A DNA stretch of 64,000 nucleotides from a virus: the IMG/VR virus record IMGVR_UViG_3300045988_066341; one strand, 5' to 3'. The notes beneath the pieces are model-generated. The model ran no database searches, was not told the DNA's origin, and worked only from the letters and a program-made list of their open reading frames with translations. Below are positions 5,535 to 56,692 of the stretch, one piece after another. Each line of letters starts with the position of its first letter. The stretch's first letter is position 1. Both the position numbers and the translations under genes were made by a program.

Positions 5535-5551
5535 TACGATTCACTTTGTTA

Positions 5552-5559
5552 CAAAGATA
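5552..5559 (-). promoter_or_regulatory. TATCTTTG promoter motif
   Basis: 18 nt upstream of ATG 5534. Confidence 0.5.
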
Positions 5560-5574
5560 CAATTTAAAATCAAA

Positions 5575-11609: not shown

Positions 11610-12059
11610 CTAAAACACCACGGCGTGTATACCATTCCTCGTATCAAGGCTGTCAAAATGCAACCAATTCACCTTCCCTTCAAGCCGGAAAGGATATGGC
11701 AACATATCTTGATGATCCAAAATCAAGCCTCTAGCCTGTTCCGCCGTCATTGACTTGACATCGAAATCCCCAGCCTTACCCAACACATGAGCGGATAGAT
11801 AAACATCTTTCTTATCCTTGACTATCTGGCAGATGTTGCATCTAAGACCACGTTGGGAAAACTGCCCCTGCTTGTCCCAATTATTACAATACATAGGCTG
11901 TTTGATTATATCCCTCCGTAATATAAGAAGATTATGGAGAAAAGCAGTATCAAGAAACTGCCACGATCTGTCCTTCCACTTATTGTATGTATGAGGACAC
12001 ACCAATTCCACTATATCAAAATACGAACCTAGTTCTTTTATAATATCATTTCTATTCAT
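11610..12059 (-). CDS. Endolysin, zinc peptidase M15 / DD- or LD-carboxypeptidase fold
   Basis: 149 aa from MNRND. SAHVLGKAGDFD (H-x6-D) and a later ..WLHFD.. His fit the M15 zinc site. The track ORF 11610..12494 was trimmed because its first 145 codons overlap 12064..12747. Confidence 0.75.
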   Translation of the reverse strand: MNRNDIIKELGSYFDIVELVCPHTYNKWKDRSWQFLDTAFLHNLLILRRDIIKQPMYCNNWDKQGQFSQRGLRCNICQIVKDKKDVYLSAHVLGKAGDFDVKSMTAEQARGLILDHQDMLPYPFRLEGKVNWLHFDSLDTRNGIHAVVF

Positions 12060-12063
12060 ATTA

Positions 12064-12747
12064 TCAATTTTTAAAGTAATGCAAAATAATAATACCACGA
12101 TAACCTGATCCTCCTCGACCGCTCGTAGCTCCACTATTAGACGCTTTAGAGGCTCCTCCTCCACCACCTCCATAATAAGTGGCATCATCTCCATTTTTGC
12201 CATTAATAGTAACACCCTTAATATCCTCGACCCCAGCTCCATCACCTCCTCCGTGATTTCCGCCTTTCCCTCCGGATAAAAAGCCCATATTCCATCCTCT
12301 TGTATAAGCTCCCGATCCACCACCAGCTCCCATAGGGTAAGGATAACGATCAGGATACTTATTATTAAAAACATATGATCCATCTTGCCCTGGATTTCCC
12401 GGGGAAGGATCATGACCATCCCCTTCAACTCCATATCCGCCTCTTCCACCTTTACCGGCAATAGCCTGATATATACCGAATATACTATCACCACCTATAT
12501 CTCCTACAACCACCCTATATGTAACACCTGGATTTACGGGTATAGTCCCAGTTAGTACACCACCTCCGTTACCACCACTCCCGGCATTATATATATCGGA
12601 ATATCCTCCATTAAGACCTCCGGCGACCAACGCGAACTCAACCTCATAGACCCCATCAGGAACCGCCCAATATCCATTATCCTGAGGAGATAATTCCTCG
12701 AATACCTCTATTACCTTCCTTTTGGGTAACATCCTTCTTCTCATCAT
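12064..12747 (-). CDS. Glycine-rich fibre-tip-like protein with MMRRRM N-terminus
   Basis: 227 aa with long GGxGG tracts. Shares the M-x-R-R-R start and the upstream T-G9-TAAAAT motif with the 52-55 kb genes. Confidence 0.65.
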   Translation of the reverse strand: MMRRRMLPKRKVIEVFEELSPQDNGYWAVPDGVYEVEFALVAGGLNGGYSDIYNAGSGGNGGGVLTGTIPVNPGVTYRVVVGDIGGDSIFGIYQAIAGKGGRGGYGVEGDGHDPSPGNPGQDGSYVFNNKYPDRYPYPMGAGGGSGAYTRGWNMGFLSGGKGGNHGGGDGAGVEDIKGVTINGKNGDDATYYGGGGGGASKASNSGATSGRGGSGYRGIIILHYFKN

Positions 12748-12759
12748 AAGGCAAATAGG

Positions 12760-12775
12760 ATTTTACCCCCCCCCA
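12760..12775 (-). promoter_or_regulatory. T-G9-TAAAAT motif upstream of 12064..12747
   Basis: C9 run at 12766-12774 on the plus strand, 18 nt before the ATG. Confidence 0.5.
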
Positions 12776-12806: not shown

Positions 12807-14183
12807 TTATTCTGGTTTAATCGTCCATCTCTGGGCGTAGTTATTTTTTAGCACATATATCTTCTCCATAGGTGTAGCGGGAGACCCGTTGGACGAGCCT
12901 TTCACGAATCCCTCTGGGGCCTGCTCCGTGCCGGAAGGACGCTGGTTTTCGGTTGGATAAGCAGCAACATACATGCTTACCGAAAGACTATAGAACTGGT
13001 TCCTCTTCCCATCCTTAGCCACGGATGTCATAGTAATCTGATCCCATCCTACAACAAGGTCGTAGAAAGAGTTCACGAAATCATCTGATCTTTTTTGGCT
13101 ATGAGTGGATGCATTCACGTTAAACCATGTAATAGCCCTCATCTCATAAATATAATCCGGAAGCTTGTCCATTCTAAGACTATTGCTATGAGCTGCAATG
13201 AAACTAGTAAGATGTTCCAATCCCCTTCCAGACATATTATCATCATTCCAATTCGTCCTCCTTTCTCCATTCACCCAGTCATCTAAAAAAGCAAATACCT
13301 CAATACTTGTATTTATCTTATCTACCTCAAAAGAAGGAATGATATTTATATCAAAATAATTCCACATATCAGAAGGACCGGGAGCTATATTCAACGAAGT
13401 TAATTTAGGAAGATCATTAAACTCCTTTATATACCTATCCAAATAGCATGAACTTAAATTAAGAGTCTCAATTTTCTTCATGTTTTTTATATTCCTTACG
13501 CCACTCGCTTCTATATCCCTAAGATCAAGCATATTAAACATATTTAAATAATATACCTCTGTCTTACTGGTTATAGCCTCAGGCATTACAGTCATTCTTT
13601 GCCCTACATTTTGAAGATCAATATAAGTTAGCTTTTTGGATCTTGACAACTTGTCTACAGGTATACCGTCATTAACATACAGCGTATGGGATACGACCAA
13701 AAATTCAAGACCTGGAATATCTACGATCAGGAAAGCCGTCATCTTACAAATTTGAATATTGGCATAATAAATATCACAAGTAAAATCTATCGACACAGCC
13801 CGTTGTACGTCCCTCCTTCCATCAGCGTAAAGATGATTATCCACGGGTACGTATTGCGATCCATCCTCCTTCCTGAACCACCACGTAGTATTGGGATTTT
13901 TCCTGTGTTGTATTGCCAAAGAACGGAATATGATACAATATTTATCCTGCCCTTGTACCTTGGTCATAGGAAACTGTTCCTTTATTCCATCCCCCCAATC
14001 CACATTAGCCATACCGGGCTTTCTGGATATAAACTCAACATACGTATTAAAAGGATTACCAACGACAGGATCGGGTACATAATTATAATCATCGGTATAA
14101 TAATTTCTAAGTGCCCTATCCCATGTGGTGAACCACACGAACTTGTTGGATGATGCCTCATATTTATATAATGTCTTAGCCAT
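12807..14183 (-). CDS. LRR-containing putative receptor-binding protein, paralog 3 of 3
   Basis: 458 aa. Conserved N-terminal (..VDWGDGIKEQFP..WWFRKEDGSQYVPV..) and C-terminal (..KDGKRNQFY..RPSG..APEGFVKG.SNG.P.TPME..YVL.NNY) blocks flank Leu-rich repeats (LTYIDLQNV, IETLNLSSC, LTSLNIA). Confidence 0.7.
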   Translation of the reverse strand: MAKTLYKYEASSNKFVWFTTWDRALRNYYTDDYNYVPDPVVGNPFNTYVEFISRKPGMANVDWGDGIKEQFPMTKVQGQDKYCIIFRSLAIQHRKNPNTTWWFRKEDGSQYVPVDNHLYADGRRDVQRAVSIDFTCDIYYANIQICKMTAFLIVDIPGLEFLVVSHTLYVNDGIPVDKLSRSKKLTYIDLQNVGQRMTVMPEAITSKTEVYYLNMFNMLDLRDIEASGVRNIKNMKKIETLNLSSCYLDRYIKEFNDLPKLTSLNIAPGPSDMWNYFDINIIPSFEVDKINTSIEVFAFLDDWVNGERRTNWNDDNMSGRGLEHLTSFIAAHSNSLRMDKLPDYIYEMRAITWFNVNASTHSQKRSDDFVNSFYDLVVGWDQITMTSVAKDGKRNQFYSLSVSMYVAAYPTENQRPSGTEQAPEGFVKGSSNGSPATPMEKIYVLKNNYAQRWTIKPE

Positions 14184-15786
14184 TACCTATCTTGTTAAAA
14201 TATTCTACAATAACATTCCTATCCAATCCCATAGAATCACATAAATACTCTCCTTCTGGTTGGCCCCCAAACGATAATACCTTATCCGTATCATGAGCTA
14301 AAACATCTCCATTGCCTACAAAGGTACGCCCATCATCAAATACGATAAGCTTATATGGCTTATATGACCTCGTGTCAATATCAGAAGATCGTATTGACCT
14401 TAACACCGAAGCCTCTGGTGCCATACTAAACCTCCATCCATAATTATTCATAAGCACATAAACCATCTCCATAGGAGTCGATGGAGAGCCATTAGACTGA
14501 CCCTTTATAAAACCAGAGGGAGCCTGTAATACGCCACTAGGTCTTTTATCATCAGGATTGGAAGCTAAATACATACTTAGATACAATCCATAAAACTGAT
14601 TTCTTTTGCCATCGGAAGCAGAGGAAGACATAGTGAGATAATCAAACCCCATCACCCTCTCATATAATGTCGATATAAACGTATCACATCGAACTTGGGT
14701 TGACAAGTTGCGATACATATAAAAGCTATTCATAGACCTCATCTCATATATATAATCCGGGAGATTACTTACATCTATATTACTATAACTGAATGAAGCG
14801 TCGATACGCTCAATGTTTCCCAATCCCTTACCGCTCATATACGGATGCCAACTCACGACAGGTCCATACCATCTATTTATATGATCGAAAATCTTTAAAC
14901 TAGAATTTATCTTATCCACCTCATCCATAGCCGGGCATGTGTTAGGATCAAACGATGATGTGGCATAACCAGGACTTAAATACAATTCTTTTAAATTATT
15001 GAATGATAACCATTCCTTAGGATATAGCCTTACTCTTCCACCAGCTAAATGCAATATCTCCAAATTAGGCCACATGGAAGGGAATTTTCTTATATTGGAA
15101 GCTTCGGTATCACTAAAGTCAATAGAATTGTCCAAAATCAGACCTTTCAATTTAGTTAGTCTATTCCAATCCTCCGGGATGGACTTCAACGTACCCACAC
15201 CAAACTCACTTAATTTTATACGCTCTATATTTACCGATCTCATTATCCTACCCTTTGGTATATATGGTACGATCCCAGGAATACTTATAATCAGATGGGC
15301 AAGGCCAGGCATATCAAGTATAGGGAATCCTGTCATCATTATCCTTGCTGTTTGTACAAATGTAATATCATTCGTAAAAGTCATGGCCACGACCCGCTCT
15401 TTATCCAGCCCATCAGCATAAGCATGATTAGGCACGGGGATATACTCACTCCCGTCATCCTTATAAAACCACCATGGATGGCTATCCGGATTCTTACGAT
15501 AACTTATATCCCTTCTCCTGAACATCAACCTATATTGACCATATATAGATCCACTCCTAGCCTTTACAAAAGGGAATTGTTCTTTACTCCCATCTCCCCA
15601 ATCGACCTCGCACATGCCGGGGGTCTTGGAATAAAACTCTATACTCTCATTATAATTATTACCATCCAATATAGGATCAGGCACATCATCAGTAGTATCA
15701 TTCCTGTTAACTCCCCTAAAAGCGTATTTACCCTTAGTTAAAAAGGTTATAGACCCTTTATTCGTATCCTTACATATCAGCCTCAT
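14176..15786 (-). CDS. LRR-containing putative receptor-binding protein, paralog 2 of 3
   Basis: 536 aa. Same N- and C-terminal blocks with a divergent LRR middle, plus a ~65-aa C-terminal extension shared with paralog 1. Confidence 0.7.
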   Translation of the reverse strand: MRLICKDTNKGSITFLTKGKYAFRGVNRNDTTDDVPDPILDGNNYNESIEFYSKTPGMCEVDWGDGSKEQFPFVKARSGSIYGQYRLMFRRRDISYRKNPDSHPWWFYKDDGSEYIPVPNHAYADGLDKERVVAMTFTNDITFVQTARIMMTGFPILDMPGLAHLIISIPGIVPYIPKGRIMRSVNIERIKLSEFGVGTLKSIPEDWNRLTKLKGLILDNSIDFSDTEASNIRKFPSMWPNLEILHLAGGRVRLYPKEWLSFNNLKELYLSPGYATSSFDPNTCPAMDEVDKINSSLKIFDHINRWYGPVVSWHPYMSGKGLGNIERIDASFSYSNIDVSNLPDYIYEMRSMNSFYMYRNLSTQVRCDTFISTLYERVMGFDYLTMSSSASDGKRNQFYGLYLSMYLASNPDDKRPSGVLQAPSGFIKGQSNGSPSTPMEMVYVLMNNYGWRFSMAPEASVLRSIRSSDIDTRSYKPYKLIVFDDGRTFVGNGDVLAHDTDKVLSFGGQPEGEYLCDSMGLDRNVIVEYFNKIGNG

Positions 15787-17348
15787 ACCTCTCCCTCCTC
15801 TATTCTCCTGAAATACTCGACAACCGGTGAACCGTCCAATCCCAGATCGTTACAGATATCTATAGCCTCGTATTTGTCAGCGAAATTATACTTACTCATA
15901 TTATCATCCAATACATCTCCGCTGAACACGGATACATGGCCGTCCTTTACGCCAAGGACGAACGGGGTAATCCTAGACTTCCCAGCCCGCCGTGCCCTCG
16001 TAAGGGCGGCCTTGGAAGCCGGGGCAGGTGCCAAGATCCACGTCTGCCCGTAGTTGTTGGTAAGCACATACACCTTCTCCATAGGCGTCGTAGGATTACC
16101 ATTACTAACCCCCTTGACAAACCCCTCAGGGGCTTGATAAACGCCAGATGGTCTCTTGTTGGTAGGAGCTGCGGAAGTATATAAATCTAAGGTAAGTTTA
16201 TAAAACTGATTCCTATTACCGTCAGAAGCCGTCTGTGACATCGTTATATAACTCCACGACATTATCTTATCATAAAATGTATTTACGAATGTATCAGCCC
16301 TCTCCTGCGTATTTATAAATGTACCACCATTACACAAAGTCCATATCCTAAATTCCCTTACCTCATACAACCAATCTGGGAGATCGTCTACCGGTACCGT
16401 GCCTGAACAACAATACGTGCCCTGAATCTTATTCAACTTACCTCCTACCAGATCTTGTTTCCATGAGCTACCACTACCCATAAAAGTAACGCCTGTCTTA
16501 TCATCTCCAACCTTATCCACCTCATCAAATACAGGTATATTATTCCTATTGCTTATAATGCTTATACCTTTTGCCGGAATAGAATTAAAAGCCGGATCAT
16601 AAGAAGGAATGTTACACCAGTTGAAGTTAAATTCAGTAAGATTCTTCCATTCAGAGAATCTTCTCCAATTAGAATCAGGATTATCAGCGAAATTAAAAAC
16701 ACTGTTACATCCGAAATACCTCAGATTTTTCATATTTAAAAAACCTTCCGGCCAATTGTCCCAAACACCAGGATGAGAAAAAGACCCCATCTGTATATTA
16801 CGAAGATTAACGCTCTTACTTATCCTGTCATATGGGATATCTCCATTTTTTAAAACGGACCTGACCATAGCCAAATAAGTTATATTAGGTAGATTAACTA
16901 CAGGAAACTTATGGAGGACAATACCATCCATATTGAACTCCCTATCGATTACGTTAGAGAACCTCATCGTAACCTCCCTACGCCTGATATCGCTATACTT
17001 ATGTGGAGAAACCGGTATATACTGAGATCCATCCTCCTTCCTATACCACCATGTAGTATCGTCAGGATTCTTTTTGTACTCAATATCTAAAGACCTGAAT
17101 ACTATCCTATAACTACCGTCAGATATCTTGACAAAAGGGTATTGATCCTTTGTCCCATCACCCCAATCGACGTCCACGAATCCTGGATTGTTTGCCGAGA
17201 ACCTGAGATTACGATTAAAAGCACCATAATCTACTATCGGATCAGGCACATAATCAGCATCCTTCCCATCATAACAAGGGAACCTGTCCTCATTCACTAT
17301 AAACGTCACCGAGGACAAGACCGTATCATATCCCACTAAAAAAGCCAT
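15783..17348 (-). CDS. LRR-containing putative receptor-binding protein, paralog 1 of 3
   Basis: 521 aa. Same architecture; ATGA overlap with paralog 2. Confidence 0.7.
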   Translation of the reverse strand: MAFLVGYDTVLSSVTFIVNEDRFPCYDGKDADYVPDPIVDYGAFNRNLRFSANNPGFVDVDWGDGTKDQYPFVKISDGSYRIVFRSLDIEYKKNPDDTTWWYRKEDGSQYIPVSPHKYSDIRRREVTMRFSNVIDREFNMDGIVLHKFPVVNLPNITYLAMVRSVLKNGDIPYDRISKSVNLRNIQMGSFSHPGVWDNWPEGFLNMKNLRYFGCNSVFNFADNPDSNWRRFSEWKNLTEFNFNWCNIPSYDPAFNSIPAKGISIISNRNNIPVFDEVDKVGDDKTGVTFMGSGSSWKQDLVGGKLNKIQGTYCCSGTVPVDDLPDWLYEVREFRIWTLCNGGTFINTQERADTFVNTFYDKIMSWSYITMSQTASDGNRNQFYKLTLDLYTSAAPTNKRPSGVYQAPEGFVKGVSNGNPTTPMEKVYVLTNNYGQTWILAPAPASKAALTRARRAGKSRITPFVLGVKDGHVSVFSGDVLDDNMSKYNFADKYEAIDICNDLGLDGSPVVEYFRRIEEGEV

Positions 17349-32414: not shown

Positions 32415-35400
32415 TTACCTAAAAGCTCCTATAGATACCGATCCAAAGGCAGAGGCATATACCTCATGGTGTTTATAAGCGTCTTCCTTGCGGGCATTAT
32501 TCATCTCCTCGATCTTCGATTTAGGCATGTAATTGTTATCGTCAAAATATCTGGAGAGAACCAACGCATGCCCGAACGCTATTATCCTATCGACGTTCAA
32601 TCCGGGCTTGTACTGTATTATCTCATCCAGTAGGGCTATATCATCAATCAACTCAATACCCTTGACAGTTATATCAAGACCAGTCTGATCATCATAACCA
32701 ATAACGAAATCCTGCCAGCAATAATCCACGACGCACGAGAATAGCAGGTTCTGGTTGCCGGGGGTAGGGTATAGCCCCAGCTTGCTGTTCTGCCGGGAGC
32801 CGGCCTTCACATACTTATTGGCTATTGCCTCACCAGCAAACAGAAAGAAAGACGCTGGCATACCACTTTTACGGTTAAGATACTGCTCATACATCTGGTC
32901 AGCGTTCTCCATAAGACATATAGCACCATATCCTTTCTGAAGCACCTCGCACGTACGGCAAAACTGATCTATGGATGATGGGCGGGATACGTATGAAGCC
33001 ACTATTCTATAGGCATAAGGATCTCGAATACCAACACGTCTCTTGAATACATAAAAAGCACCTAATGAAGGGGTATCAGACTTGGCCTGTTTATAAGGGT
33101 CGCAATTGTGAACAGATATATTCCTTAATAAATAATTATTCGTATCACATTCAAAATTATACACAGGACCGGTATACTTTTCTTTAGTTATAGATGATAT
33201 CCTGACATATATATACTTATTATCATTACTAATAAATATACCTGTGGAAGGACTTTTTCTTGTGCTGGTATCCATACATACTTTAGACAATTTAGATATA
33301 TAATCAGGAGTTAATGTCTCAACCAACTTCATGAAATACACAGTATAGTTATGGCCTATCCTTAAATGATAACATGATCTTTGAGATTTAACCTTATTGC
33401 CATCTATATATTCAGCCCTATTTTTTTTCATTATGGATATACCTCCAACTACTCCAAGAGATAACAATATATCCTGTATACCCTCAAGAAGATCCATACT
33501 GACACTTACGAAATCCATGCCCGAATAATTGCGAAAATCATTATGGATAGATCCATCCGTATCCAGATATCCATGAATTAAACTAACCTTCATGCTAAAC
33601 GGGAGGTATTTAGCAAATTCAGGAATATATTTACCATAACAATATTTACCAAAATTATTAACAAGCCACTCGCTTAGATAAACATGCTTAAAATTTAATT
33701 CCCAATTACCCTTCCTGCATCTCTCCGAAGGCTTAATACCAAAAAGATTATCTATAACCTTGTAATACCTATCCCTCTCTTCTGGATAGTCAAAACAAAT
33801 AGCCATCTGTACACGACACTGCTTATCAATCCATCCATTCCCTAGCCACATCCCGACAAACCACCAAAAATCATCAGAAAGCATATAATCCCTAAATCCC
33901 GGAATATCCATCCTTTCTTCGGCATACATATTTGGGATCCTTGTCCACTGTCCCTCTTTTATATCCTTGACAGGTATGTAATCAAACTTGAATAAATCTT
34001 CCCTAACCCTTCTCCCTACGGTCTTATGATCAGAAACAAAAATAGGATGATCAGAAGTAAATCTATTTATTCTTACGCCATTATACATCTTTATCGAATA
34101 AAGATCCTCTTCGACCATATTTCTGACAAGTCTCTTGCGTATCCTAACATTATCCCCTTCATTATTAACCAAGAAATCATCATAGTCAACATCCTCTACA
34201 TTCTTATATCCATCAGGGGTCAACACCCTTTCTCCGGGAGGCATACATCCTGCGACATAAATAAAATCATCAAACCTATTAGATTGAGGCATCTCAAATA
34301 TCTGGACAGGAGCGTCAATAACACCGCCGCTAAACGGGAAACCAGCCAATTGCTTATTCGATTTAGTAGTACCAAGCTTATTTCCCGATTCAAGAAAAAC
34401 ATCACACAACATGCCGCTATATTGCCCTGACTCAAGAAGATCATTCTTATGCTTGATAGCGTACTCGACCGGAAATAGGTTCTGGGATGAGCTTAAAAAA
34501 CAGTCGTCAATCGTAAATGGATAGAACATGGTATGAGAGGTATAAGCTACCCTATCTTTCGTAGATAGCTTCTTCCGTTCCTCGTTAAGCTTATTGGTAC
34601 TGGCTTCAAAATCCGTGGCATCAATCTTAATCTTATTAAGCTTCTTGTCATCAGGCTTACCAAGATAATCGCCCAATCCTATAGTTCTCTTAACACCGGA
34701 GTTAGCCATCTGACCGGGAACGAACATCGCCCATTTCCGTTCTTTCCATGTTTTCCCTTTCATGGCTCTACGATTTAAAATATCCCAGTCCATAACCAGA
34801 AGATTGTAGGTCTCAGGATCAGAAAACATTTCTTGAGCGTCCTTGGATAATTCTACCTCACCACCAGTACCAGCCAAGATAGGGCTAAGACGCCAGCCGT
34901 AAGGAGTGTCGTAGGAAGGCATAGCGGCAGTGTACGGCTTCTTGATAGGTCCCTTACCAACCTCGTCGAAAATAGCCGTAGCCGGTGTCAAACCAGCCGT
35001 CTTCTGAGTGGAGGTCTTCCTACCCATGTTGATGTTGGCTATAGAGATAATGGCATGGATATCACGTACGCCATTGGACATCCTCTTGCCTAATGTAACG
35101 CCCGAACTCCAGTCGGTCTTGGTCCTGTTGATCCTGAAAAAAGGATGCACATGATCAAGACCATACTCACAATACTCACCTATATTAGATAAATCGCTAT
35201 CGCTGAAACCTACCACGGAATGGCTAAGCCCGATCGTCATGGTAGCGTTCATCTGGAGAAGTGATGACATGATGGTCGTATTATGGGATACGACAAAATT
35301 GGTAGTAAGAAACTGATGAGATTTATTATCTACCTCAATACAAGTAGCCTTATACTTCCCGTAATAATCTATATCGGATATCCTAAGTCTGTTATGGGTC

Positions 35401-36347
35401 TTGGATATATACATATCATCGCCATCCATGACGCAATAATATCCCATAGACCAGAATATTCTTCTTACGAAGGATATAATATACTCACTTTTGTAAACGA
35501 CCTTAAAACGATCGTCACCAGTACTTATGCCGCAAGCTATCTTCATGAATGAGCTTATAAACAACTCCTTCTGTTTTTTGGATGAATAAATAATATCATC
35601 CATCTCCTTATTGCTTAACTCGAAGATCCTGTCGGTAGATCCACAAAGGAAAGAGGCGGTCAGAGACCCAAGGAGCTGGGGCGACATCAGCCACCGCCGC
35701 TCGGGGAAATCCACGGCCTCCCCTATGTCTATAGTCATCTTCTGGAAGTCAGAGTGGATGATACCCATAGTGCTCATGACTTTATAATCACCATGATATT
35801 TAACCTTCCACTGATGTTGACCGCAACATACTATACTGCGCCCGTCCTCAAACGTCACCTTATACATATCAACGAACCCTTGAGGGTATACGCCTACTAT
35901 AGTCGTAAGCTTACCATCATCGCCATATATGATATCCCCGATATCAGCGAACCCTATCTTCTTAGGTCCATAAGGAGTATATATCAGCTCCGAGTCCAGA
36001 AGGGCCTTCCCAAAACGACGGGTACCGAACATCCCCAGCCCTTTCTTCTCCTGACGGGCACGTTGGTACATCTCAGCGAAAAACCATTCATTATCACGTA
36101 ACCGGCTGATAGCAGGAACACGCTCCCCATTTGGAAGATCTTGAAATACGGGAAAGAAATTAACATGCCAATAAAGCCATGGCGGGATGAACGTACCGTT
36201 GATAGTCACCCCGTTCTTGACCTTATAAGCCTCCTCCGTGAAGAACTGCTTAACATCATCATCTTGATCCTCCCAGCCGAACAAATCGTTCCACACTGGA
36301 GGATTCTTCATGTTTACATAAAATTCTGGACTCGTGCTTAAACTCAT
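32415..36347 (-). CDS. terL: Terminase large subunit interrupted by two inteins (687-aa extein)
   Basis: Walker A GTRRFGK|..|T is split by intein 1. Walker B AIFDEVGKG. Nuclease motif IYVAG|..|CDPY is split by intein 2. 1310 aa in total. Confidence 0.85.
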   Translation of the reverse strand: MSLSTSPEFYVNMKNPPVWNDLFGWEDQDDDVKQFFTEEAYKVKNGVTINGTFIPPWLYWHVNFFPVFQDLPNGERVPAISRLRDNEWFFAEMYQRARQEKKGLGMFGTRRFGKALLDSELIYTPYGPKKIGFADIGDIIYGDDGKLTTIVGVYPQGFVDMYKVTFEDGRSIVCCGQHQWKVKYHGDYKVMSTMGIIHSDFQKMTIDIGEAVDFPERRWLMSPQLLGSLTASFLCGSTDRIFELSNKEMDDIIYSSKKQKELFISSFMKIACGISTGDDRFKVVYKSEYIISFVRRIFWSMGYYCVMDGDDMYISKTHNRLRISDIDYYGKYKATCIEVDNKSHQFLTTNFVVSHNTTIMSSLLQMNATMTIGLSHSVVGFSDSDLSNIGEYCEYGLDHVHPFFRINRTKTDWSSGVTLGKRMSNGVRDIHAIISIANINMGRKTSTQKTAGLTPATAIFDEVGKGPIKKPYTAAMPSYDTPYGWRLSPILAGTGGEVELSKDAQEMFSDPETYNLLVMDWDILNRRAMKGKTWKERKWAMFVPGQMANSGVKRTIGLGDYLGKPDDKKLNKIKIDATDFEASTNKLNEERKKLSTKDRVAYTSHTMFYPFTIDDCFLSSSQNLFPVEYAIKHKNDLLESGQYSGMLCDVFLESGNKLGTTKSNKQLAGFPFSGGVIDAPVQIFEMPQSNRFDDFIYVAGCMPPGERVLTPDGYKNVEDVDYDDFLVNNEGDNVRIRKRLVRNMVEEDLYSIKMYNGVRINRFTSDHPIFVSDHKTVGRRVREDLFKFDYIPVKDIKEGQWTRIPNMYAEERMDIPGFRDYMLSDDFWWFVGMWLGNGWIDKQCRVQMAICFDYPEERDRYYKVIDNLFGIKPSERCRKGNWELNFKHVYLSEWLVNNFGKYCYGKYIPEFAKYLPFSMKVSLIHGYLDTDGSIHNDFRNYSGMDFVSVSMDLLEGIQDILLSLGVVGGISIMKKNRAEYIDGNKVKSQRSCYHLRIGHNYTVYFMKLVETLTPDYISKLSKVCMDTSTRKSPSTGIFISNDNKYIYVRISSITKEKYTGPVYNFECDTNNYLLRNISVHNCDPYKQAKSDTPSLGAFYVFKRRVGIRDPYAYRIVASYVSRPSSIDQFCRTCEVLQKGYGAICLMENADQMYEQYLNRKSGMPASFFLFAGEAIANKYVKAGSRQNSKLGLYPTPGNQNLLFSCVVDYCWQDFVIGYDDQTGLDITVKGIELIDDIALLDEIIQYKPGLNVDRIIAFGHALVLSRYFDDNNYMPKSKIEEMNNARKEDAYKHHEVYASAFGSVSIGAFR
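33105..34247 (-). mobile_element. Intein 2 (381 aa) with LAGLIDADG homing-endonuclease domain, at the TerL nuclease motif
   Basis: CMPPGERVLTPDG...ISVHN|C. Block B is TSDH. LAGLIDADG-like motifs FVGMWLGNGWI and LIHGYLDTDGSI. Junction codons were checked. Confidence 0.8.
35280..36005 (-). mobile_element. Intein 1 (242 aa) in the TerL P-loop, class-3-like
   Basis: Starts with Ala (ALLDSELIY), ends VVSHN|T. Block B is GRSIVCCGQHQW (His then Trp at +2). Block F is ATCIEV with Cys where class-1 inteins have Asp. Junction codons were checked on the sequence. Confidence 0.7.
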
Positions 36348-39008: not shown

Positions 39009-39084
39009 CTTAAAAAAAATATCGTTGTCAAGAAATTATGCCATAATCAACATAATATATGCTGATTAGCATGTATTTACGAAC

Positions 39085-39247
39085 ATCCAAAGGAAAAAGG
39101 TGGTGGAAATGGAGGAGGAAAGCCAGATAAGTCCACCGTAAGCCACGGCAACGAGGCCAGTTGAGCACCGGCCATACATGCCTCCGAGCGGCGGTGGACA
39201 GCTCTATCCTGCCTCACGGGACATGACCACACCTTTTCCCTTTGGAT
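39085..39247. repeat. GC-rich element B1
   Basis: ATCCAAAGGAAAAAGGTGGTGG ... CCACACCTTTTCCCTTTGGAT, giving ~20-bp inverted ends, with central CCGGCC at 39168. Confidence 0.75.
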
Positions 39248-39274
39248 GCCTTCCTGCCGTGCTATGGGATATAA

Positions 39275-39378
39275 ATCCAAAGGAAATGGGAAGTCTTGGG
39301 GCGATGGAGCCTGCCGTAGAGGATACGGGCGGCCGGAGCGTGAGCGACCGCACAAGACCTCACCTTTTCTCCTTTGGC
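39275..39378. repeat. GC-rich element B2
   Basis: ATCCAAAGGAAATGGGAAGTCTTG ... CAAGACCTCACCTTTTCTCCTTTGGCT, with central GGCCGG at 39331. Confidence 0.75.
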
Positions 39379-39654
39379 TTCTGCTCCGCCCGATCCCCTT
39401 CCGGGTCCCGGACTCCGGTAACATCATATGGCATTGTTATTATAAGCCTGCGGTGTCCTGCCTGACGGCACTACACCTTGGCAGTAAAAATATTAATTAG
39501 CTATATAGACATTTGACTTCATGATATACCCTACACAAAACATGGAGGATTAGGAAGTAGGATATATTAATATAGTTAATTATAATTAATAAATATACCT
39601 ATTAATGCGCGCGTAACAAGTATGATGTCAAAAATGATCATACAGAAACACAGA

Positions 39655-39670
39655 TATTTACCCCCCCCCA
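39655..39670 (-). promoter_or_regulatory. T-G9-TAAATA motif pointing toward the GC-rich cluster and late operon
   Basis: C9 at 39661-39669. Only a 21-codon ORF follows on the minus strand. Confidence 0.4.
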
Positions 39671-39789
39671 TTTTATTACGACAATTTCGTATAAACAACA
39701 AATGGGCGACCTTCACAGGCTACCCATCCATCCGAATAACTTGTTTCGTATTTACGGAACTCGTATATTCGCAGCAAATAAAATCTTCT

Positions 39790-49115: not shown

Positions 49116-49187
49116 GCCCTAATAGTTCAATGGATAGAACACGTCGGTCCTAACGATGAAATTTCGGTTCGATTCCGGATTGGGGTA
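49116..49187 (+). tRNA. tRNA-Arg (CCT)
   Basis: Acceptor GCCCTAA/TTGGGGT (two G-U pairs). D arm GTTC-AATGGATA-GAAC. Anticodon stem CGTCG/CGATG with loop GTCCTAA. T arm TTCGG-TTCGATT-CCGGA. 72 nt. Confidence 0.7.
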
Positions 49188-49315
49188 CATGGTGTTTTCT
49201 TAAACATATTCCCGTAGGTCGGTAATTAACGATAACCGGTAGACAGCCTACGGGAATTAATAAAATCTTACGTGCTTAAGATCGCTTTCAGTTCTATTTT
49301 TCGTGTGTAATCTAT

Positions 49316-51196: not shown

Positions 51197-51547
51197 ATGG
51201 ATAAAATGTTCGAGAAATTAGATATGGGTAACGTATCTGATGGATATCATACCTTTAACGAGCTATACAGATACCGTATGCTTTACAATGCCGCTTTCTT
51301 CAACGAGCTGGCTAAAGGGGATGTAAAGGTCTGTAAGTCACATAAGCATTATGATGGGGAGGAATGCTTCGGTGGAGGATGGTTTATTGTAATGGCCGAA
51401 CTACCTACAGGTCAGATCTCCAATCATTATGAGAACCGGTATTGGGGGTTATTCAATATCCCTGAACTTGAAACGGCATGGAAGTGGGATGGTCATACGC
51501 CTAATGAGGCCGCTGATAGAATAGAATCTTACTTGAAATTAAAATGA
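51197..51547 (+). CDS. Conserved phage protein of unknown function
   Basis: 116 aa. ..DGYHTFNELY.YR..YNA..F..x..GWF....LPTGQISNHY....W......E....WDGHT.. is recalled as a widespread phage family of unknown role. Confidence 0.55.
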   Translation: MDKMFEKLDMGNVSDGYHTFNELYRYRMLYNAAFFNELAKGDVKVCKSHKHYDGEECFGGGWFIVMAELPTGQISNHYENRYWGLFNIPELETAWKWDGHTPNEAADRIESYLKLK

Positions 51548-51590: not shown

Positions 51591-51851
51591 ATATACCGAA
51601 GTGTCTACCACGATCTGGCTGTCCATATCATCAATCAACTCAATGATCTCATCCCTTATATCGTAAGAAAGCAAAATCGGGATTATGGTTAACATAAAAG
51701 ATAGTATTATCCCGAATCCTATTATGACAAGGATATCATTATACCCTATATCTAATATCGGCATGGCAAACATCATCCCTGACGTGAATATCATTACGAA
51801 CAACGTGGATATCTCATTTATCATATCCCTCTCCATTACGTCCTTTATCAT
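51573..51851 (-). CDS. Small membrane protein
   Basis: 92 aa with two hydrophobic helices. Confidence 0.5.
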   Translation of the reverse strand: MIKDVMERDMINEISTLFVMIFTSGMMFAMPILDIGYNDILVIIGFGIILSFMLTIIPILLSYDIRDEIIELIDDMDSQIVVDTSVYKTNLP

Positions 51852-52102
51852 ATCTCCTCCACTTTAGTATGATTTATTATCCTGCTGATATGACGGATAC
51901 TTAATCCCGTCCTGTCCTTTATCTTACCATATACGTAGTTCCTTGATACGACCGTAGCCAAATCACCTAACTCGTACAGTATCTCATTATACATCCTATG
52001 GATCTCGTTGTTGCGGATAACCGTACTGTCCCTTACATATATCTTCTCAACGTCATCGTCGCAGAAGAAGATCTTAAGCTTATGAAGTATGTCTCTAAAC
52101 AT
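51848..52102 (-). CDS. Small HTH-like protein (possible regulator)
   Basis: 84 aa. The C-terminal ..TGLSIRHISRIINH.. is HTH-like. TATCTTTG motif 17 nt upstream. Divergent from the MxRRR island. Confidence 0.5.
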   Translation of the reverse strand: MFRDILHKLKIFFCDDDVEKIYVRDSTVIRNNEIHRMYNEILYELGDLATVVSRNYVYGKIKDRTGLSIRHISRIINHTKVEEI

Positions 52103-52228: not shown

Positions 52229-52310
52229 TCAGCGACATGATTCGAGAATAAATCATATATTTGTATGTACAAAATGCATAATAATATGATATTAAATAAA
52301 ATTAACTCAA

Positions 52311-52326
52311 TGGGGGGGGGTATTTT
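52311..52326 (+). promoter_or_regulatory. T-G9-TATTTT motif upstream of 52352..53026
   Basis: G9 at 52312-52320, 31 nt before the ATG. Confidence 0.5.
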
Positions 52327-52351: not shown

Positions 52352-53026
52352 ATGTTAAGAAGAAGAATGTTAAGTCAAATGCCATTACCGCCGTCCGGTA
52401 ACGTGAATGACGCTTATTTTTACGTGGAAGCTCCATGGATAAAAGATCTATCAAAATATAATATGAATGTGGATGGATCTATGTATATGGATATTGATAA
52501 ATATAATGGTAAATATGTATTTTCCATGGGAAGAGTAGGAACCTACAATTCCTATATCAAATTTGATAATGACTCGAATATATTACCATGCCCTCAACCA
52601 GATAACGAAATATCCATAGAAGCGTTGCTCTATTTAAATACACAACAGGAAGGAAGATATTATCTCTTCGCTCCATATGGAACCCAATCTACTACACAAA
52701 GCTATTTATGTATCGGTGTTAATGTCTCATCATATGGGACTTCCCTTTTTTATACCCAAGGACGATCTGTGGCTATACAACCATATCAGTGGATACATGT
52801 AATGGCGTCGTGGAGAAATGGGTATTTAAGGGAATATATTGGAGGAGTACTGAATTATGAGGATGCGACTAATGTGATGTATACACGAAACTATCAAACA
52901 TATTATTTTAATATAGGAGGATATCCATCAGCATATAACATGGGGCTCCCGGGAATGTTTAGGTATGTAAGGATCTGGAATTATGCTAAGAACTTTGACT
53001 TGGATAAATTCGTGCCGGATACTTGA
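52352..53026 (+). CDS. LamG/concanavalin-like lectin-fold protein with MLRRRM N-terminus
   Basis: 224 aa. ..YQWIHVMASWRNGYLREYIGG...x..FRYVRIWNYA fits the LamG jelly-roll signature. Confidence 0.6.
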   Translation: MLRRRMLSQMPLPPSGNVNDAYFYVEAPWIKDLSKYNMNVDGSMYMDIDKYNGKYVFSMGRVGTYNSYIKFDNDSNILPCPQPDNEISIEALLYLNTQQEGRYYLFAPYGTQSTTQSYLCIGVNVSSYGTSLFYTQGRSVAIQPYQWIHVMASWRNGYLREYIGGVLNYEDATNVMYTRNYQTYYFNIGGYPSAYNMGLPGMFRYVRIWNYAKNFDLDKFVPDT

Positions 53027-53088
53027 TCATACGATATTAAGGTGGTGGTCGTGCCACTACCTATCTATTATTCCATAATAAAGATATA

Positions 53089-53164
53089 TACCAAGGGAAG
53101 TAGCCGGCGGAAGCCCCGATGGGTAGGCCCGGAGGGATGAAGGGAGGCCTACCTCCCTTTGGTA
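53089..53164. repeat. GC-rich element D (between convergent genes)
   Basis: TACCAAGGGAAGTAGCC ... GGCCTACCTCCCTTTGGTA. Confidence 0.75.
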
Positions 53165-53185
53165 CTACATCCTCCTCACAATATA

Positions 53186-53749
53186 TTATGATGGTACTAC
53201 AATTACTATATTTACATTATAGGTGTTATTGTAAATGCCAGTTCCAACGGCAACAGATTGGCATCCCTCACAGGCATTGGCTGTTATACAATGATTACTT
53301 GTTATAAGATGACCTTGCCAAGTTATACGATTGTTACTTGTAATCTGATTATAAAATTCAGACATGTAAGTGAAATTGATAATCTCCTCAGGATCGGTTA
53401 TCTCCGTTATAGGAGTAAATTTAGTTATCCTATTCCCGTATAACTCCGTATCAGCTAAATCACAATGCACACCAGAATTATATAGATACGTGAGAGTCCC
53501 TTTTGAAACACCTCCAGTCGTGCCTAATAAAATGTTGTACTCATATTGTTGATCCTTTGAAACTATCTGTCCACCTATTCTTATAACTTCTATCTTCTTA
53601 TTGCGATATATATCAAGATAAGATCCGTTAAAATCAGATTGATATGTATCTCCATCAATATATATATCTACAGGATTAGGACACATGCTCTTGTCTATAT
53701 TAATACGGTAGTGGATCTTACCGGAAGAAGAAGTCCTGCGCCTAAACAT
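53186..53749 (-). CDS. Hypothetical protein with MFRRR N-terminus
   Basis: 187 aa. T-G10-TATTTT motif 28 nt upstream, with AAGGAGG just before the ATG. Confidence 0.55.
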   Translation of the reverse strand: MFRRRTSSSGKIHYRINIDKSMCPNPVDIYIDGDTYQSDFNGSYLDIYRNKKIEVIRIGGQIVSKDQQYEYNILLGTTGGVSKGTLTYLYNSGVHCDLADTELYGNRITKFTPITEITDPEEIINFTYMSEFYNQITSNNRITWQGHLITSNHCITANACEGCQSVAVGTGIYNNTYNVNIVIVVPS

Positions 53750-53771
53750 ACCCCCTCCTTATCTGAGGGTT

Positions 53772-53788
53772 AAAATACCCCCCCCCCA
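53772..53788 (-). promoter_or_regulatory. T-G10-TATTTT motif upstream of 53186..53749
   Basis: C10 at 53778-53787 on the plus strand. Confidence 0.5.
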
Positions 53789-53876
53789 CGAAGTTATATG
53801 TAATATATTGATACATGATTAAATAATTTAAGTTACGTACAAATATAATAAATTATATTAGATGGGGGAGGGAAGA

Positions 53877-53952
53877 TACCAAGGAAGGGTGGCTGGCGTC
53901 ATACCCGCCGGGAAGGCTATAAGGGATGGGAGCCAGCCCCGTTCTATTGGGT
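53877..53952. repeat. GC-rich element E
   Basis: TACCAAGGAAGGGTGGCTGG ... CCAGCCCCGTTCTATTGGGT. Confidence 0.7.
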
Positions 53953-53967
53953 CAGTAGGGTGTATGA

Positions 53968-54723
53968 TCACTCGATGTCACGTACAAATCGAACAGAAGA
54001 GGTTAGGCGCTTGTATCGGGTGAATGTGCGCCCATTGTTGAATAGTACGATCCATCCGGAGTTGGAGCTATGCTCTGAACTAGACCAATAATATCTGGTA
54101 TCTAACGGCTGTCCACCAATAGCCAATAACGCGTTATTGACGCTAATTAAGTACATATATATCAATGAAAGCTGACCACATGATGGGATATACCAATCAT
54201 CATATCCTTTAGCGTCAGCACTAGCTAAGAACGTATTAAGTACATGACCGGCTGTCGCATAGGAAGTATAAGAACCGCCACCGGTAGTCACCCCTTTTAA
54301 TACATTGGAATTCGCTTTCCCATCCCAATCAGATAAAGCCCCATTCGTCCAGGAGCTAACATCATCCGGAAGATATGGAGTACCTTTGTATGAATCTTGC
54401 TCAGGTTTCAGGAAACCAAAATCATTGCTCCCGTCTACTTTGTCATAATTTGTAATGCCGGTCTGATCCGTACCATATTCACCCCAATAAAAAGAATAAG
54501 TCTTGTTAGAAGAATCGGGCAAACCGGACGTGGCTGTTTTGTAGCTTTGATTAGAATCTTCATTCTTCTCAATCATGATCTTATGATCATCATGTACAAT
54601 AGCTACGGATATACATTGATAATCCGCCTTTGACAAAGGTATTAATCTACCATCCTGTTTAACGGCATAAACGCCATTATCAACAGGGGATTTATAACTT
54701 GAATAAAATCTCCTCCTTATCAT
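53968..54723 (-). CDS. DUF1566/Lcl-C-terminal-like lectin-type protein with MIRRRF N-terminus
   Basis: 251 aa. ..DDWYIPSCGQL..x..YYWSSSE.S...W.V.F..G......K.....VRFVR matches the DUF1566 pattern (from memory). Confidence 0.6.
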   Translation of the reverse strand: MIRRRFYSSYKSPVDNGVYAVKQDGRLIPLSKADYQCISVAIVHDDHKIMIEKNEDSNQSYKTATSGLPDSSNKTYSFYWGEYGTDQTGITNYDKVDGSNDFGFLKPEQDSYKGTPYLPDDVSSWTNGALSDWDGKANSNVLKGVTTGGGSYTSYATAGHVLNTFLASADAKGYDDWYIPSCGQLSLIYMYLISVNNALLAIGGQPLDTRYYWSSSEHSSNSGWIVLFNNGRTFTRYKRLTSSVRFVRDIE

Positions 54724-54747: not shown

Positions 54748-54763
54748 TAAATACCCCCCCCCA
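54748..54763 (-). promoter_or_regulatory. T-G9-TATTTA motif upstream of 53968..54723
   Basis: C9 at 54754-54762, 30 nt before the ATG. Confidence 0.5.
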
Positions 54764-54885
54764 TCATGTATTTAACTTCTTTATTCATAATATATTATGT
54801 TTTAATTATATCGCAAATATAACAAATTAAATGAGATGGAAGGTGATATGGTTGTGAGGAAGTATGAGGGATATTCGGGGAGGAT

Positions 54886-55020
54886 GATATGCGGGACATT
54901 ATTGGAGAGATGGGGTGGGGTATGATGGGAGGGGGATATGCGGGACGGACCACCTCCCCGAAATCGGCCCGGCCGGGCTGCCGTTTTTGGACCAGCCCCC
55001 CCCCAATCCACAAAGGACGG
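54886..55020. repeat. Degenerate/composite GC-rich element F with internal C9 run
   Basis: GATATGCGGGAC occurs twice. CCCGGCCGGG palindrome at 54968-54977. CCGTTTTTGG end. C9 at 54996-55004. ATCCACAAAGGACGGGAAAC. Confidence 0.45.
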
Positions 55021-55282
55021 GAAACAAGAACGGTAAACGATCTGCGAGCCGAAAAAAGAATGATTATTTTGTGTTTAACTTGTTGATTATCAATCATATA
55101 AATCAATATTTTAATATATGTTTACATTTGATTAGATTTATTACATATAATCGTCGAATTTTTATTGCAAAATATTTGTTGGACAATAAAACATGTAGTA
55201 TATTTGCTCCTGTAAGATAACAGCATTAACAAACAAGGCGTACCAGGTGCCATTATAAGTCCTAAAGGTATAGGCAAAGTAT

Positions 55283-55813
55283 ATGATAAGTAAAGAGATT
55301 AACAAAGTACAGAATGAAGTTAAAAAATCAAACGAAAAGACATTAACAGGTGCAGTAAAAGCTTGGTGCAACCTGTTTAAATCTGGTAAAGAAATAAACG
55401 ACATACTAAAAGAAAATGATATTAAAGTATCAAAGGAAGTCGTTCCCGCTTTGGTTGCTTTAGCTAAAGACAAAGAAGTAGTAATACAACTTTGCAAAGA
55501 AATACTCCCACGAGTAAATAATACGTTTTGCGCATACAAGGAAGTAGAGCGTGAATACTATGATAAAAACGAACAGGATAAAAACAAAAAGCTTAAAATG
55601 AGTGAAATAGAGGATATAGCAATACTAGGATCGTCTCATAAACGCTTTGGATATAATAAGCCTATAGAGTACGATTTTGGTATATATTACGAAACGTTTA
55701 ACGGTGCAGACAAACGTATCATAAAGTGTGCCGTACCTATCAAACGGTATACATTTAATCTCATTGCAAAGTGTGTCACTTACTATTTGACACACCCCAA
55801 AAATGAAAGATAA
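55283..55813 (+). CDS. Hypothetical Lys-rich protein
   Basis: 176-aa ORF followed by a 9-bp-stem hairpin. Confidence 0.55.
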   Translation: MISKEINKVQNEVKKSNEKTLTGAVKAWCNLFKSGKEINDILKENDIKVSKEVVPALVALAKDKEVVIQLCKEILPRVNNTFCAYKEVEREYYDKNEQDKNKKLKMSEIEDIAILGSSHKRFGYNKPIEYDFGIYYETFNGADKRIIKCAVPIKRYTFNLIAKCVTYYLTHPKNER

Positions 55814-55850: not shown

Positions 55851-56372
55851 GTTATGGTAGCACACCTATGCGTTCCCGTCGCGCTACTGATTTAGACTAA
55901 ATAGGTACGATATTTGATATTTTGATATAAACATATTGCTGGTTGTTAGGGTCTCGAGAGCCAGCAATAGATAGGCCGCCGCTTAGTAATGTGGTTTAGG
56001 TACTATCCTAGTCCAGGGTAGTACTATTATCTTTAGGTTTATATCAATCCGGTAAGTACGCTAGGTTAACCTAGTAGACCGTGTAAAAACACGGGGTATG
56101 TTGGTGTATATACGCATTTATAGGGCGTATGTCCATGCGTTGCTAGAGTAACATGTATGGAGTGCATTACGGGGCTATAACCGTGCCAATATATCAAAGC
56201 AATAGTATCTAAGGTTGCTTAAATACTTGGATACTATATGTAGTATCAAAATAGCAGCCCTTACAAGGGTATTTTGTGCGGTTAAATTGACGGACAAAGT
56301 GCGCCTTGTCGATACGTATCACGGACAACGTATGTATGTATTTGGCCGGCTTCGTTGTCGGCAAAGGGACTA
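55851..56372. other. ORF-free, hairpin-dense region (candidate structured RNA or replication-origin component)
   Basis: No credible ORF on either strand. At least 10 local stems (ATTGCTGG/CCAGCAAT, GTACTATCC/GGGTAGTAC, CTAGGTTAACCTAG, CCGTG/CACGG, ATACGC/GCGTAT, AAGCAA/TTGCTT, GATACTA/TAGTATC, GATACGTATC). Confidence 0.35.
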
Positions 56373-56466
56373 ATCCAAAGGGAATAGGGGGGGGCGTGCG
56401 GGCGTTCGGTTGGTTGTATTGATAAGGCCGGCCGTATTGCCCCCGGTCTCCCGTTTCTTATTGGTG
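56373..56466. repeat. GC-rich element G (contains a G8 run)
   Basis: ATCCAAAGGGAATAGGGGGGGG ... central GGCCGGCC (56426-56433) ... CCCCCGGTCTCCCGTTTCTTATTGGTG. Confidence 0.7.
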
Positions 56467-56485
56467 CCATTAAAAAGAATAGATT

Positions 56486-56692
56486 ATGTACAAAAAAAAG
56501 TTTGATAATTTGAATAAGAAATTATCCATTCAAAAAGAAAAGGCTTTAAAGTCCATCAAAAAAGCCCAAATGGAATTTTACATTGAACTTACCAAAGAAC
56601 TATACAATTCTAATAAATTAGATTGTAGCAGGGAGTCGGACAAGTGCAGGCGGAAACGTGTTAGTTACATGGCAAACAAATTGCGGCAATAG
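56486..56692 (+). CDS. Hypothetical small helical protein
   Basis: 68 aa, followed by a strong terminator. Confidence 0.5.
   Translation: MYKKKFDNLNKKLSIQKEKALKSIKKAQMEFYIELTKELYNSNKLDCSRESDKCRRKRVSYMANKLRQ

Follow-up and report, generated by a model that had tools for sequence, protein, structure and literature searches.

We analyzed a 64,000-nucleotide stretch of viral DNA from the IMG/VR record IMGVR_UViG_3300045988_066341, called the window throughout. It carries an island of three adjacent genes (g1, g2 and g3) and a distant gene in the tail module (g4), whose products combine unrelated bodies with the same start, Met-x-Arg-Arg-Arg (M-x-RRR). This shared start had been pointed out in a preliminary description of the DNA, and all four genes were found to have it:

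52352..53026, + strand: g1, cassette gene of 224 amino acids (aa), MLRRRM, LamG/ConA-like lectin fold (PF13385, 1.2e-7, above the cut-off)
53186..53749, - strand: g2, cassette gene of 187 aa, MFRRRT, all-beta, probably two immunoglobulin-like sandwiches, the most variable cassette
53968..54723, - strand: g3, cassette gene of 251 aa, MIRRRF, DUF1566/Lcl_C (C-type-lectin-like) body
12064..12747, - strand: g4, cassette gene of 227 aa, MMRRRM, TNF-like plus glycine-rich domain (PF21722)

Each of these open reading frames (ORFs) opens at the first ATG after a stop codon. The window has 82 first-ATG ORFs that are 100 aa or longer, and of these only g1 to g4 begin with M-x-RRR, compared to 0.013–0.055 such starts expected by chance from the Arg and RRR frequencies. 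A fifth candidate, MFRRRD at 15525, was rejected as an internal conserved segment of a leucine-rich-repeat (LRR) paralog. The Arg codons of the tag are AGA AGA AGA in g1, AGG CGC AGG in g2, AGG AGG AGA in g3 and AGA AGA AGG in g4; since they differ between the genes, the identity of the tag lies at the protein level. They vary within g2 as well, with AGG replaced by AGA in L079 (relatives are numbered with the prefix L). Three homologs of g4 gave the following picture:

L282, 57% identity: MTRRRM, codons AGA AGA AGG, G10 followed by TAAAA, 19 nt to the ATG
L283, 50% identity: MLRRRT, codons AGA CGT AGA, G10 followed by TAAAT, 57 nt to the ATG
L284, 34% identity: MLRRRT, codons AGA CGA AGG, G9 followed by TAAAA, 58 nt to the ATG

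As g4 homologs at 34–58% identity keep RRR together with a G tract upstream, both appear to be selected and to stay together, and the alignments support protein-level selection on the tag. The preliminary description had left room for true starts at downstream ATGs. Residues 1–37 of g2 are nearly invariant, the next Met being residue 22, and the g4 homologs keep RRR with other Arg codons, both of which support starts that include RRR. Gene callers usually begin g4 at Met6.

The second feature common to the four genes is a run of G on the coding strand:

52312..52320, + strand: G9 tract followed by TATTTT, 31 nt 5' of the g1 ATG; length 5–11 in relatives
53778..53787, - strand: G10 tract (C10 on the + strand) followed by TATTTT, 28 nt 5' of the g2 ATG; 7–15 in relatives
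54754..54762, - strand: G9 tract followed by TATTTA, 30 nt 5' of the g3 ATG; 8–10 (up to 12) in relatives, with several public contigs ending at this tract
12766..12774, - strand: G9 tract followed by TAAAAT, 18 nt 5' of the g4 ATG; 7–10, up to 19 and 24, in relatives

Exactly three copies of the motif GGGGGGGGTATTT are present in the 64 kb (0.17 expected), one per island gene, 28–31 nt upstream and on the coding strand. Hence, the earlier claim that a G-tract motif bounds each gene holds for all three island genes and extends to g4, where the tract had been overlooked. The window contains seven G/C runs of at least 8, and four of them adjoin g1 to g4; the remaining three lie in element F (see below), in a GC-rich element at 56359-56437 and in a strand-switch region at 39661. 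Matches to the G8 pattern numbered 14, with 2.1 expected. With G9 or G10, all four genes have tracts long enough to slip (at least 7–8 G).

The tracts are part of a 5' layout that is common to all cassette types and consists of a TTATATTTG box, an AT-rich leader of ~55–60 nt, the G tract with TAWWW behind it, a run of pyrimidines (CCTCC, for example), an A-rich stretch and the ATG; the leaders are of three interchangeable types. The box fits the Bacteroidota -7 consensus TAnnTTTG and is a candidate promoter. The features of the island and its borders are:

51848..52102, - strand: conserved left flank gene, 84 aa
52156..52231, + strand: border repeat C, G-rich, boundary of the 84-aa flank gene and cassette 1 (nhmmer family)
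52256..52263, + strand: TATATTTG, matching the -7 box TAnnTTTG and conserved in every leader type, ~55 nt before the G tract of g1
53040..53062, + strand: terminator-like hairpin and T-rich tail, 14 nt past the g1 stop codon
53090..53167, + strand: border repeat D, g1/g2 boundary
53840..53848, - strand: TTATATTTG, -7-like box of the g2 leader
53879..53952, + strand: border repeat E, g2/g3 boundary (fold z-score -2.7, the sole significant copy)
54814..54822, - strand: TTATATTTG, -7-like box of the g3 leader
54835..55045, no strand assigned: element F, the constant right flank, GC-rich and containing short tandem repeats and a C9 run (54996-55004), outside the C/D/E family
55283..55813, + strand: conserved right flank gene, 176 aa, anchor for finding relatives

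Two other roles of the 5' sequences were considered and rejected. The G tract does not lie in a promoter spacer, as the conserved TAnnTTTG box lies ~55–60 nt upstream of it. Upstream ORFs with an ATG or GTG abutting the G tract, which could couple translation, are present in g1 and g3 but missing from the E/F cassette types and from several g2 copies. The 84-aa left flank gene had been described as helix-turn-helix-like, a reading that found no support: searches of Pfam, PHROGs and PDB returned neither this nor any other family.

Elements C, D and E are members of one family of ~75-nt homologous repeats that is confined to the island; the window has three copies and the relatives have 112, each cassette being accompanied by one. 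The window copies are all on the + strand whatever the orientation of the genes, and 108 of the 112 copies in relatives are co-oriented. The consensus reads CCAARGRAA...GGATG...TTCCCTTGG. The preliminary description had taken C, D, E and F as GC-rich hairpins that bound the genes. Its delimiting role stands for C, D and E, F being an unrelated flank, and the hairpin nature is weak: RNAalifold gave no consensus structure for the border repeats, fold z-scores were unremarkable except for E, and a proposed closing stem pairs in 75% of cells, with a few compensatory changes. In the relatives, the left part of element F (54835-54960) is a tandem repeat of variable copy number, whose units include GGGATGC, TGGGATATG and longer ones, and the C run is 7–9 long. 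Many IMG/VR contigs end in this repeat or in the adjacent poly-G (starts of L021, L040, L049 and L056).

Relatives were fetched via the 176-aa right flank gene, and 59 of them carry both conserved flank genes. The two flank genes are 920 to 3672 nt apart (3181 nt in the window), and the islands hold 0–3 cassettes belonging to four protein clusters:

g2-like cluster: 44 copies, always on the - strand, the most variable
DUF1566-like cluster: 38 copies, on both strands, with the starts MIRRRFYSS, MLRRRFYQS, MLRRRFHSS and MFRRRF[QK]LS
LamG cluster: 15 copies (15 of 59 islands), + strand, always in slot 1
290-aa orphan cluster: 3 copies, - strand, MFRRRWFSS

Further DUF1566-like subtypes, MMRRRFNSG and a truncated sixth, bring the subtypes to at least six. 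Every intact cassette keeps both M-x-RRR and the G tract. Cassettes are often truncated or frameshifted, and the other ORFs in the islands are truncated copies, spurious ORFs over element F and an inserted insertion sequence (IS) in three relatives. This IS of ~1.35 kb carries a 407-aa gene for a TnpB-like (IS605-family OrfB) protein and is present in L023 (island 91-1314), L030 and L054, inserted 13 nt upstream of the 84-aa gene, equivalent to ~52115 in the window, with TAGTTTTG repeated at its right end.

Comparison of close relatives shows gain, loss and replacement of cassettes in their genomes, as the preliminary description had suggested from the modular layout. For example, L001 lacks g1 and g3 and has a different 290-aa MFRRRW gene, and a C/D hybrid border repeat marks the deletion of g1. 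In general, the left arm of a border repeat tracks its left neighbour and the right arm its right neighbour, and the crossover points of hybrid repeats fall in the conserved core GGnnCGGARGGATG. When identity was profiled in 30-nt windows, four junctions became apparent. In a DUF1566 cassette occupying slot 1, the sequence is 90–100% identical to that of g1 from -248 to +22 and continues into a g3-like body, so that the joint lies directly past the RRR codons; a second junction is at about -20, and two further ones are at the G tract, where two deletion variants are also joined. Recombination in the border repeats and in the stretch from G tract to RRR thus re-assorts bodies, leaders and slots. 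In deletions in L215 and L061, the N-terminus of a cassette or its G tract is fused to the interior of the 84-aa flank gene.

The crossovers within the border repeats fall in the longest shared core, which is what would be expected if exchange between the repeats is driven by homology. The array also resembles an integron, with one imperfect-palindrome border per cassette, a fixed border orientation and hybrids after cassette loss, and a dedicated recombinase could use the same-strand palindromes as attC-like sites. We regard such a site-specific mechanism as extremely unlikely, because no integrase adjoins the array among the flank genes and none was found in epsilon crAss-like genomes with IntegronFinder and PHASTER (PMC11054128), because no attC consensus and no attC-type R/L boxes could be seen by eye in the alignments of the elements, and because many junctions are found in the 5' block rather than in the repeats. 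The cassettes here, unlike those of integrons, also have putative promoters of their own and mixed gene orientation.

A closer parallel is provided by the PeSL cassettes of T4-type phages, nonessential ORFs that are flanked by repeated promoter and stem-loop motifs in hyperplastic regions (PMC2839356, PMC4122927). In both systems, recombination between the motifs accounts for insertions, deletions and replacements between close relatives, and at every cassette in our set the border repeat adjoins a TAnnTTTG box, with weak evidence for a stem-loop. The differences are the phage order and host, the Bacteroidota promoter type and the ~75-nt G-rich border with its weakly supported hairpin. In addition, the cassettes described here contain a poly-G tract and a coding N-terminal tag, and their bodies are a restricted set of binding folds rather than random ORFans.

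The coincidence of junctions with both purine runs, the G tract and AGR-AGR-AGR, raises the question of whether these runs are conserved as DNA or RNA, the Arg residues being a by-product. They could be recombination hot spots, a hairpin of the G tract with the CCUCC-like leader sequence could control the initiation of translation, or the genes could depend on a particular tRNA. Indeed, in six of seven leader types the minimum-energy fold has the G tract paired to the pyrimidine run that follows it, and the phage encodes a tRNA-Arg(CCU) (49116-49188, + strand), AGG codons being present in the tags of g2, g3 and g4. The fold z-scores are mostly not significant, however, and the distance between G tract and ATG is not fixed (8–58 nt). 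CGC, CGT and CGA replace AGR while Arg is kept, which breaks both the purine run and any AGR-specific role, and we consider conservation at the nucleic acid level quite improbable. The window also encodes tRNA-Met and tRNA-Cys; Rfam scans, lenient on the island and at gathering threshold on the window, yielded only three tRNAs and one chance match to a microRNA.

The bodies of the proteins had been described as carbohydrate-binding or fibre-tip types, with LamG, DUF1566 and glycine-rich folds as guesses. The LamG assignment of g1 (Laminin_G_3, PF13385, 32.4 bits, cut-off 27.6) and the glycine-rich assignment of g4 (Gly_rich_2, PF21722, 31.6 bits, cut-off 24.3) were confirmed. g3 scored 34.4 bits with Lcl_C/DUF1566 (PF07603), 0.5 bit short of the cut-off of 34.9; it also matches phrog_4245 at 1e-14 and PDB entry 8q4e at 5e-4, both of which back the assignment. 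Hence, a binding-type body is supported by family matches for g1 and g3 and by the structural model for g4. For g2, no family was found; its AlphaFold2 model had a predicted local distance difference test (pLDDT) score of 72 with weak fold matches, and fold searches of PDB and BFVD gave nothing at E ≤ 1e-3. The PHROG matches of the bodies fall in the distal parts of profiles of 583–1183 positions. No hydrophobic stretch follows RRR on inspection of the sequences for Sec, Tat and lipoprotein signals, and the bodies combine extracellular-type binding folds with the lack of a signal peptide.

g4 is located between the last LRR paralog and an ORF of 148 aa, which is followed by a gene for a 193-aa membrane protein; the latter two, which have no Pfam match, are a putative lysis pair. 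The g4 slot was readable in 74 of 80 fetched relatives, and 51 of these keep g4 with its G tract; the others lack g4. In nine relatives without g4, a gap of 11 nt separates the LRR stop codon from the start codon that follows, indicating that g4 is cleanly absent. As judged from these genomes, g4 is an optional cassette too, but without a border repeat, and it also lacks a promoter box. The g4 model (pLDDT 85, predicted template modelling score (pTM) 0.82) matches the tail fibre gp24 of cyanophage Pam3 (7ypx_A) in Foldseek with E 1.6e-5 and probability 1.0, and it also matches Bxb1 tail-tip chains. The domains concerned recognize the receptor in Pam3 gp24, and a separate N-terminal helical domain docks the protein to the baseplate; gp24 has been likened to the gp38 adhesin (PMC9608196). 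g4 shares with Pam3 gp24 and the T2/S16 gp38 proteins (PMC9608196, PMC3157838) a TNF-like/beta plus glycine-rich architecture in a small protein of 230–250 aa. It differs from them in lacking a helical docking domain, as only 12 residues, MMRRRMLPKRKV, precede the first strand and form a basic tag, and no chaperone was found next to it. The folds of g1, g2 and g3 are different.

The surroundings of g4 are variable as well. The frame of the 148-aa ORF is open backwards through the g4 body (ORF 11610..12494; region 11610-12747, - strand), and in many relatives a frameshift fuses the N-terminus of g4 to this frame, or full-length g4 is fused to it in frame; products of 373 aa that fuse g4 and the 148-aa frame form clusters of 117 and 640 members. 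On the other side lie three LRR paralogs (12807-17348, - strand) with conserved N- and C-terminal parts, whose number and type vary in relatives (L084-L163), making this a second variable region in the tail module that adjoins g4.

The position of the tract relative to the gene differs in L282, a more distant relative in which a LamG cassette (5291-5921) is placed after the lysis genes. The gene starts with MRRRFFNNT, followed by G9 and a stop codon, so the tract lies within the ORF, out of frame. If it were G8 or G11, the frame would continue as KIDSHTVFYMNFD, which aligns with MRRRMLNNNNDDLVDEHTRFLMRFD, the N-terminus of the homolog P0209 from a second LamG family. On this alignment, the L282 tract is in the 'off' phase of a classical contingency-locus layout. 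Hypermutable poly-G contingency loci have been described in Campylobacter phages (Sorensen et al. 2021, Cell Rep 35:109214, as cited in PMC12823448) and proposed for T2/T4 (bioRxiv 10.1101/2025.10.21.683753). The cassettes share with them G homopolymers of at least 8 with polymorphic lengths at receptor-binding-type genes. They differ in that, in the window and most relatives, the tract is in the 5' leader and not in the ORF, and in that it is also a recombination junction.

By its sequence relationships, the source of the 64-kb window is an epsilon crAss-like phage with a genome of ~150 kb. The structural arm in the window encodes a terminase, a portal and a capsid protein; the last shares 58% identity with its counterpart in crAssE-Sib (151 kb) and 29% with the capsid proteins of the Cellulophaga phages phi17:2 and phi4:1. 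The epsilon group of crAssE-Sib comprises two proposed genera with Bacteroides, Parabacteroides and Porphyromonas as predicted hosts, and cassettes of a diversity-generating retroelement (DGR), which target a C-type-lectin receptor-binding protein, are limited to Epsilonunovirus, Epsilonduoviruses having no DGRs (PMC11054128). Because the syntenic locus of crAssE-Sib contains neither a poly-G tract nor an M-x-RRR ORF, the feature belongs to the window's own lineage, which is very common in IMG/VR, with contigs of ~80–160 kb. A scan of IMG/VR for G8, 5–35 nt and ATG-x-RRR found essentially this lineage only, plus one spurious high-GC match.

DUF1566 and C-type-lectin domains are among the usual DGR targets in Bacteroides phages. 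The cassette genes were rejected as such targets within the window, as no second copy of any part of g1 to g4, which would represent a template repeat, is present in these 64 kb of the ~150-kb genome. The Epsilonunovirus DGR (PMC11054128) belongs to the same phage group and has the same apparent purpose of varying a C-type-lectin-type ligand-binding protein; here, this would be achieved by cassette shuffling and homopolymer instability instead of mutagenic retrohoming.

As far as genome comparison goes, the locus is shown to encode small beta-rich binding proteins in a hyperplastic set that recombination shuffles, their only common parts being the 5' expression block and the five-residue basic tag. 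Each cassette is a unit of its own, with a putative Bacteroidota-type promoter box, an AT-rich leader of ~60 nt, a tract of G7–G15, TAWWW and a pyrimidine run, ATG-x-Arg-Arg-Arg and a small, beta-rich body of predicted ligand-binding type, and it is delimited by a ~75-nt G-rich border repeat. In our model, the products would be accessory receptor- or glycan-binding modules on the virion. Their basic N-terminus of 5–12 residues (M-hydrophobic-R-R-R-hydrophobic) would serve as a minimal common anchor that replaces the larger docking domains of ordinary fibre proteins, allowing unrelated bodies to occupy the same virion site. The poly-G tract would be hypermutable, slipped-strand changes in its length altering the expression of each module, and would double as a recombination joint, so that progeny would carry different adhesin sets. 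With its G-tract-fronted, swappable genes the phage can probably reshuffle and switch what it sticks to, and the system may stand in for the DGR that acts on the C-type-lectin receptor-binding protein of the sister genus. For the joint proposal that the products are accessory adhesins displayed on the virion, that the tag is their minimal anchor and that the G tracts diversify their expression, we estimate a probability of about 0.42.

Several observations weigh against this proposal. The presence of the four proteins in virions is a prediction, and the fold assignment of g2 and the hairpins of the border repeats are weak. The island is surrounded by replication and nucleotide-metabolism genes in the replication-side arm. 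The window's G tracts lie in untranslated leaders, so a change in length has no obvious on/off effect, and their distance from the ATG varies widely, as given above. The tract lengths of 7–24 G were compared between assemblies and may partly reflect sequencing or assembly error at homopolymers; the slot-1 tract ranges over 5–11 among relatives and other G/C runs vary in length too, and an A8 tract taken as a control for homopolymer error had five alignable copies, too few to judge. Several public contigs terminate at G tracts or in the neighbouring tandem-repeat array, and the two kinds of sequence explain recurrent assembly breaks in these genomes. Finally, RRR is followed by Met-Leu in g1, g4 and the P0209 family, as if the tag had been grafted in front of an older start codon; translation could begin at the second ATG and omit the tag.

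The last observation, together with the promoter boxes and the surroundings of the island, would also fit non-structural cargo. Host-type promoter boxes would suit early 'moron' genes, and the products could act inside the infected cell in receptor masking, superinfection exclusion or counter-defence, the shared start reflecting common descent of a mobile 5' expression module that recombination grafted onto new bodies. Consistent with this, the cassettes are optional and frequently truncated or frameshifted, have their own TAnnTTTG boxes amid replication and nucleotide-metabolism genes, and have junctions inside the 5' block, which thus travels as a module. It is harder to explain in this way why the bodies are extracellular-type binding folds without signal peptides and why g4, which has no promoter box, resides in the tail module and resembles solved tail-fibre proteins. 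Moreover, synonymous codon changes have left RRR intact even at 34% identity, a level at which the module has lost its nucleotide homology. We therefore view intracellular cargo as a real possibility, if an unlikely one.

In T4, an N-terminal capsid targeting sequence is common to otherwise unrelated internal proteins of a hyperplastic locus, and crAss-like phages are known to carry ejected cargo proteins. M-x-RRR could similarly be a capsid- or cargo-targeting signal for proteins that are packed in the head and ejected into the host. The formal likeness is a very short N-terminal peptide on unrelated bodies in a hypervariable locus, and a basic tag could bind DNA. The tag differs from the T4 sequence in being five residues long and basic and in lacking a common cleavage motif, with no protease-site-like motif past it and residues 6–12 that differ between families. 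Lectin, C-type-lectin and fibre-tip folds are unlike known ejected proteins, and g4 is among tail genes and not head genes. Packaging in the head therefore appears highly improbable.

Returning to virion-displayed adhesins, a stronger version of the proposal would have the five-residue plug (M-hydrophobic-R-R-R) suffice on its own to mount any small binding domain on one virion site, the genes being toggled independently by their poly-G tracts and swapped between co-infecting genomes at cassette borders, as a phase-variable 'adhesin wardrobe' that replaces the DGR of the sister genus. We consider this version speculative and rather doubtful. Each ingredient of the system has a precedent; the combination and the very short shared tag do not, and our literature search found nothing that links crAss-like phages to poly-G tracts or to such cassettes. 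The locus would provide a DGR-independent route to variation in ligand binding and would combine three devices that are usually seen apart, namely cassette shuffling at border repeats, unstable homopolymers and a minimal shared anchor tag. The epsilon group of crAss-like phages is abundant in the human gut, and one cluster of g2 contains 2309 sequences and one of g4 6034. If the tag does dock the modules, it would be a handle for engineering the host range of gut phages or for display.

Other features of the window were noted in passing. The terminase large subunit (32415-36347, - strand) has 1310 aa, and its residues ~708–997 match PHROGs annotated as ribonucleotide reductase, which suggests an intein or other insertion in the central segment. 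A WDGH-domain protein (PF25311, 1.7e-38; 51197-51547, + strand) is 116 aa long in the window, and its homolog in MT836733 (L001, 5443-6048) has 201 aa with an extra N-terminal part. In the strand-switch region (39077-39700), a G9 tract followed by TAAATA on the - strand (39661-39669) is followed by only a 21-aa ORF, which adjoins a GC-rich stretch of ~400 nt; this could be the vestige of a cassette head, or else a regulatory element. The region 56359-56692 loosely echoes the cassette layout, with a GC-rich element and a G8 run (56387-56394) upstream of a basic 68-aa ORF that begins with MYKKKF, its KKK codons forming an A8 run.

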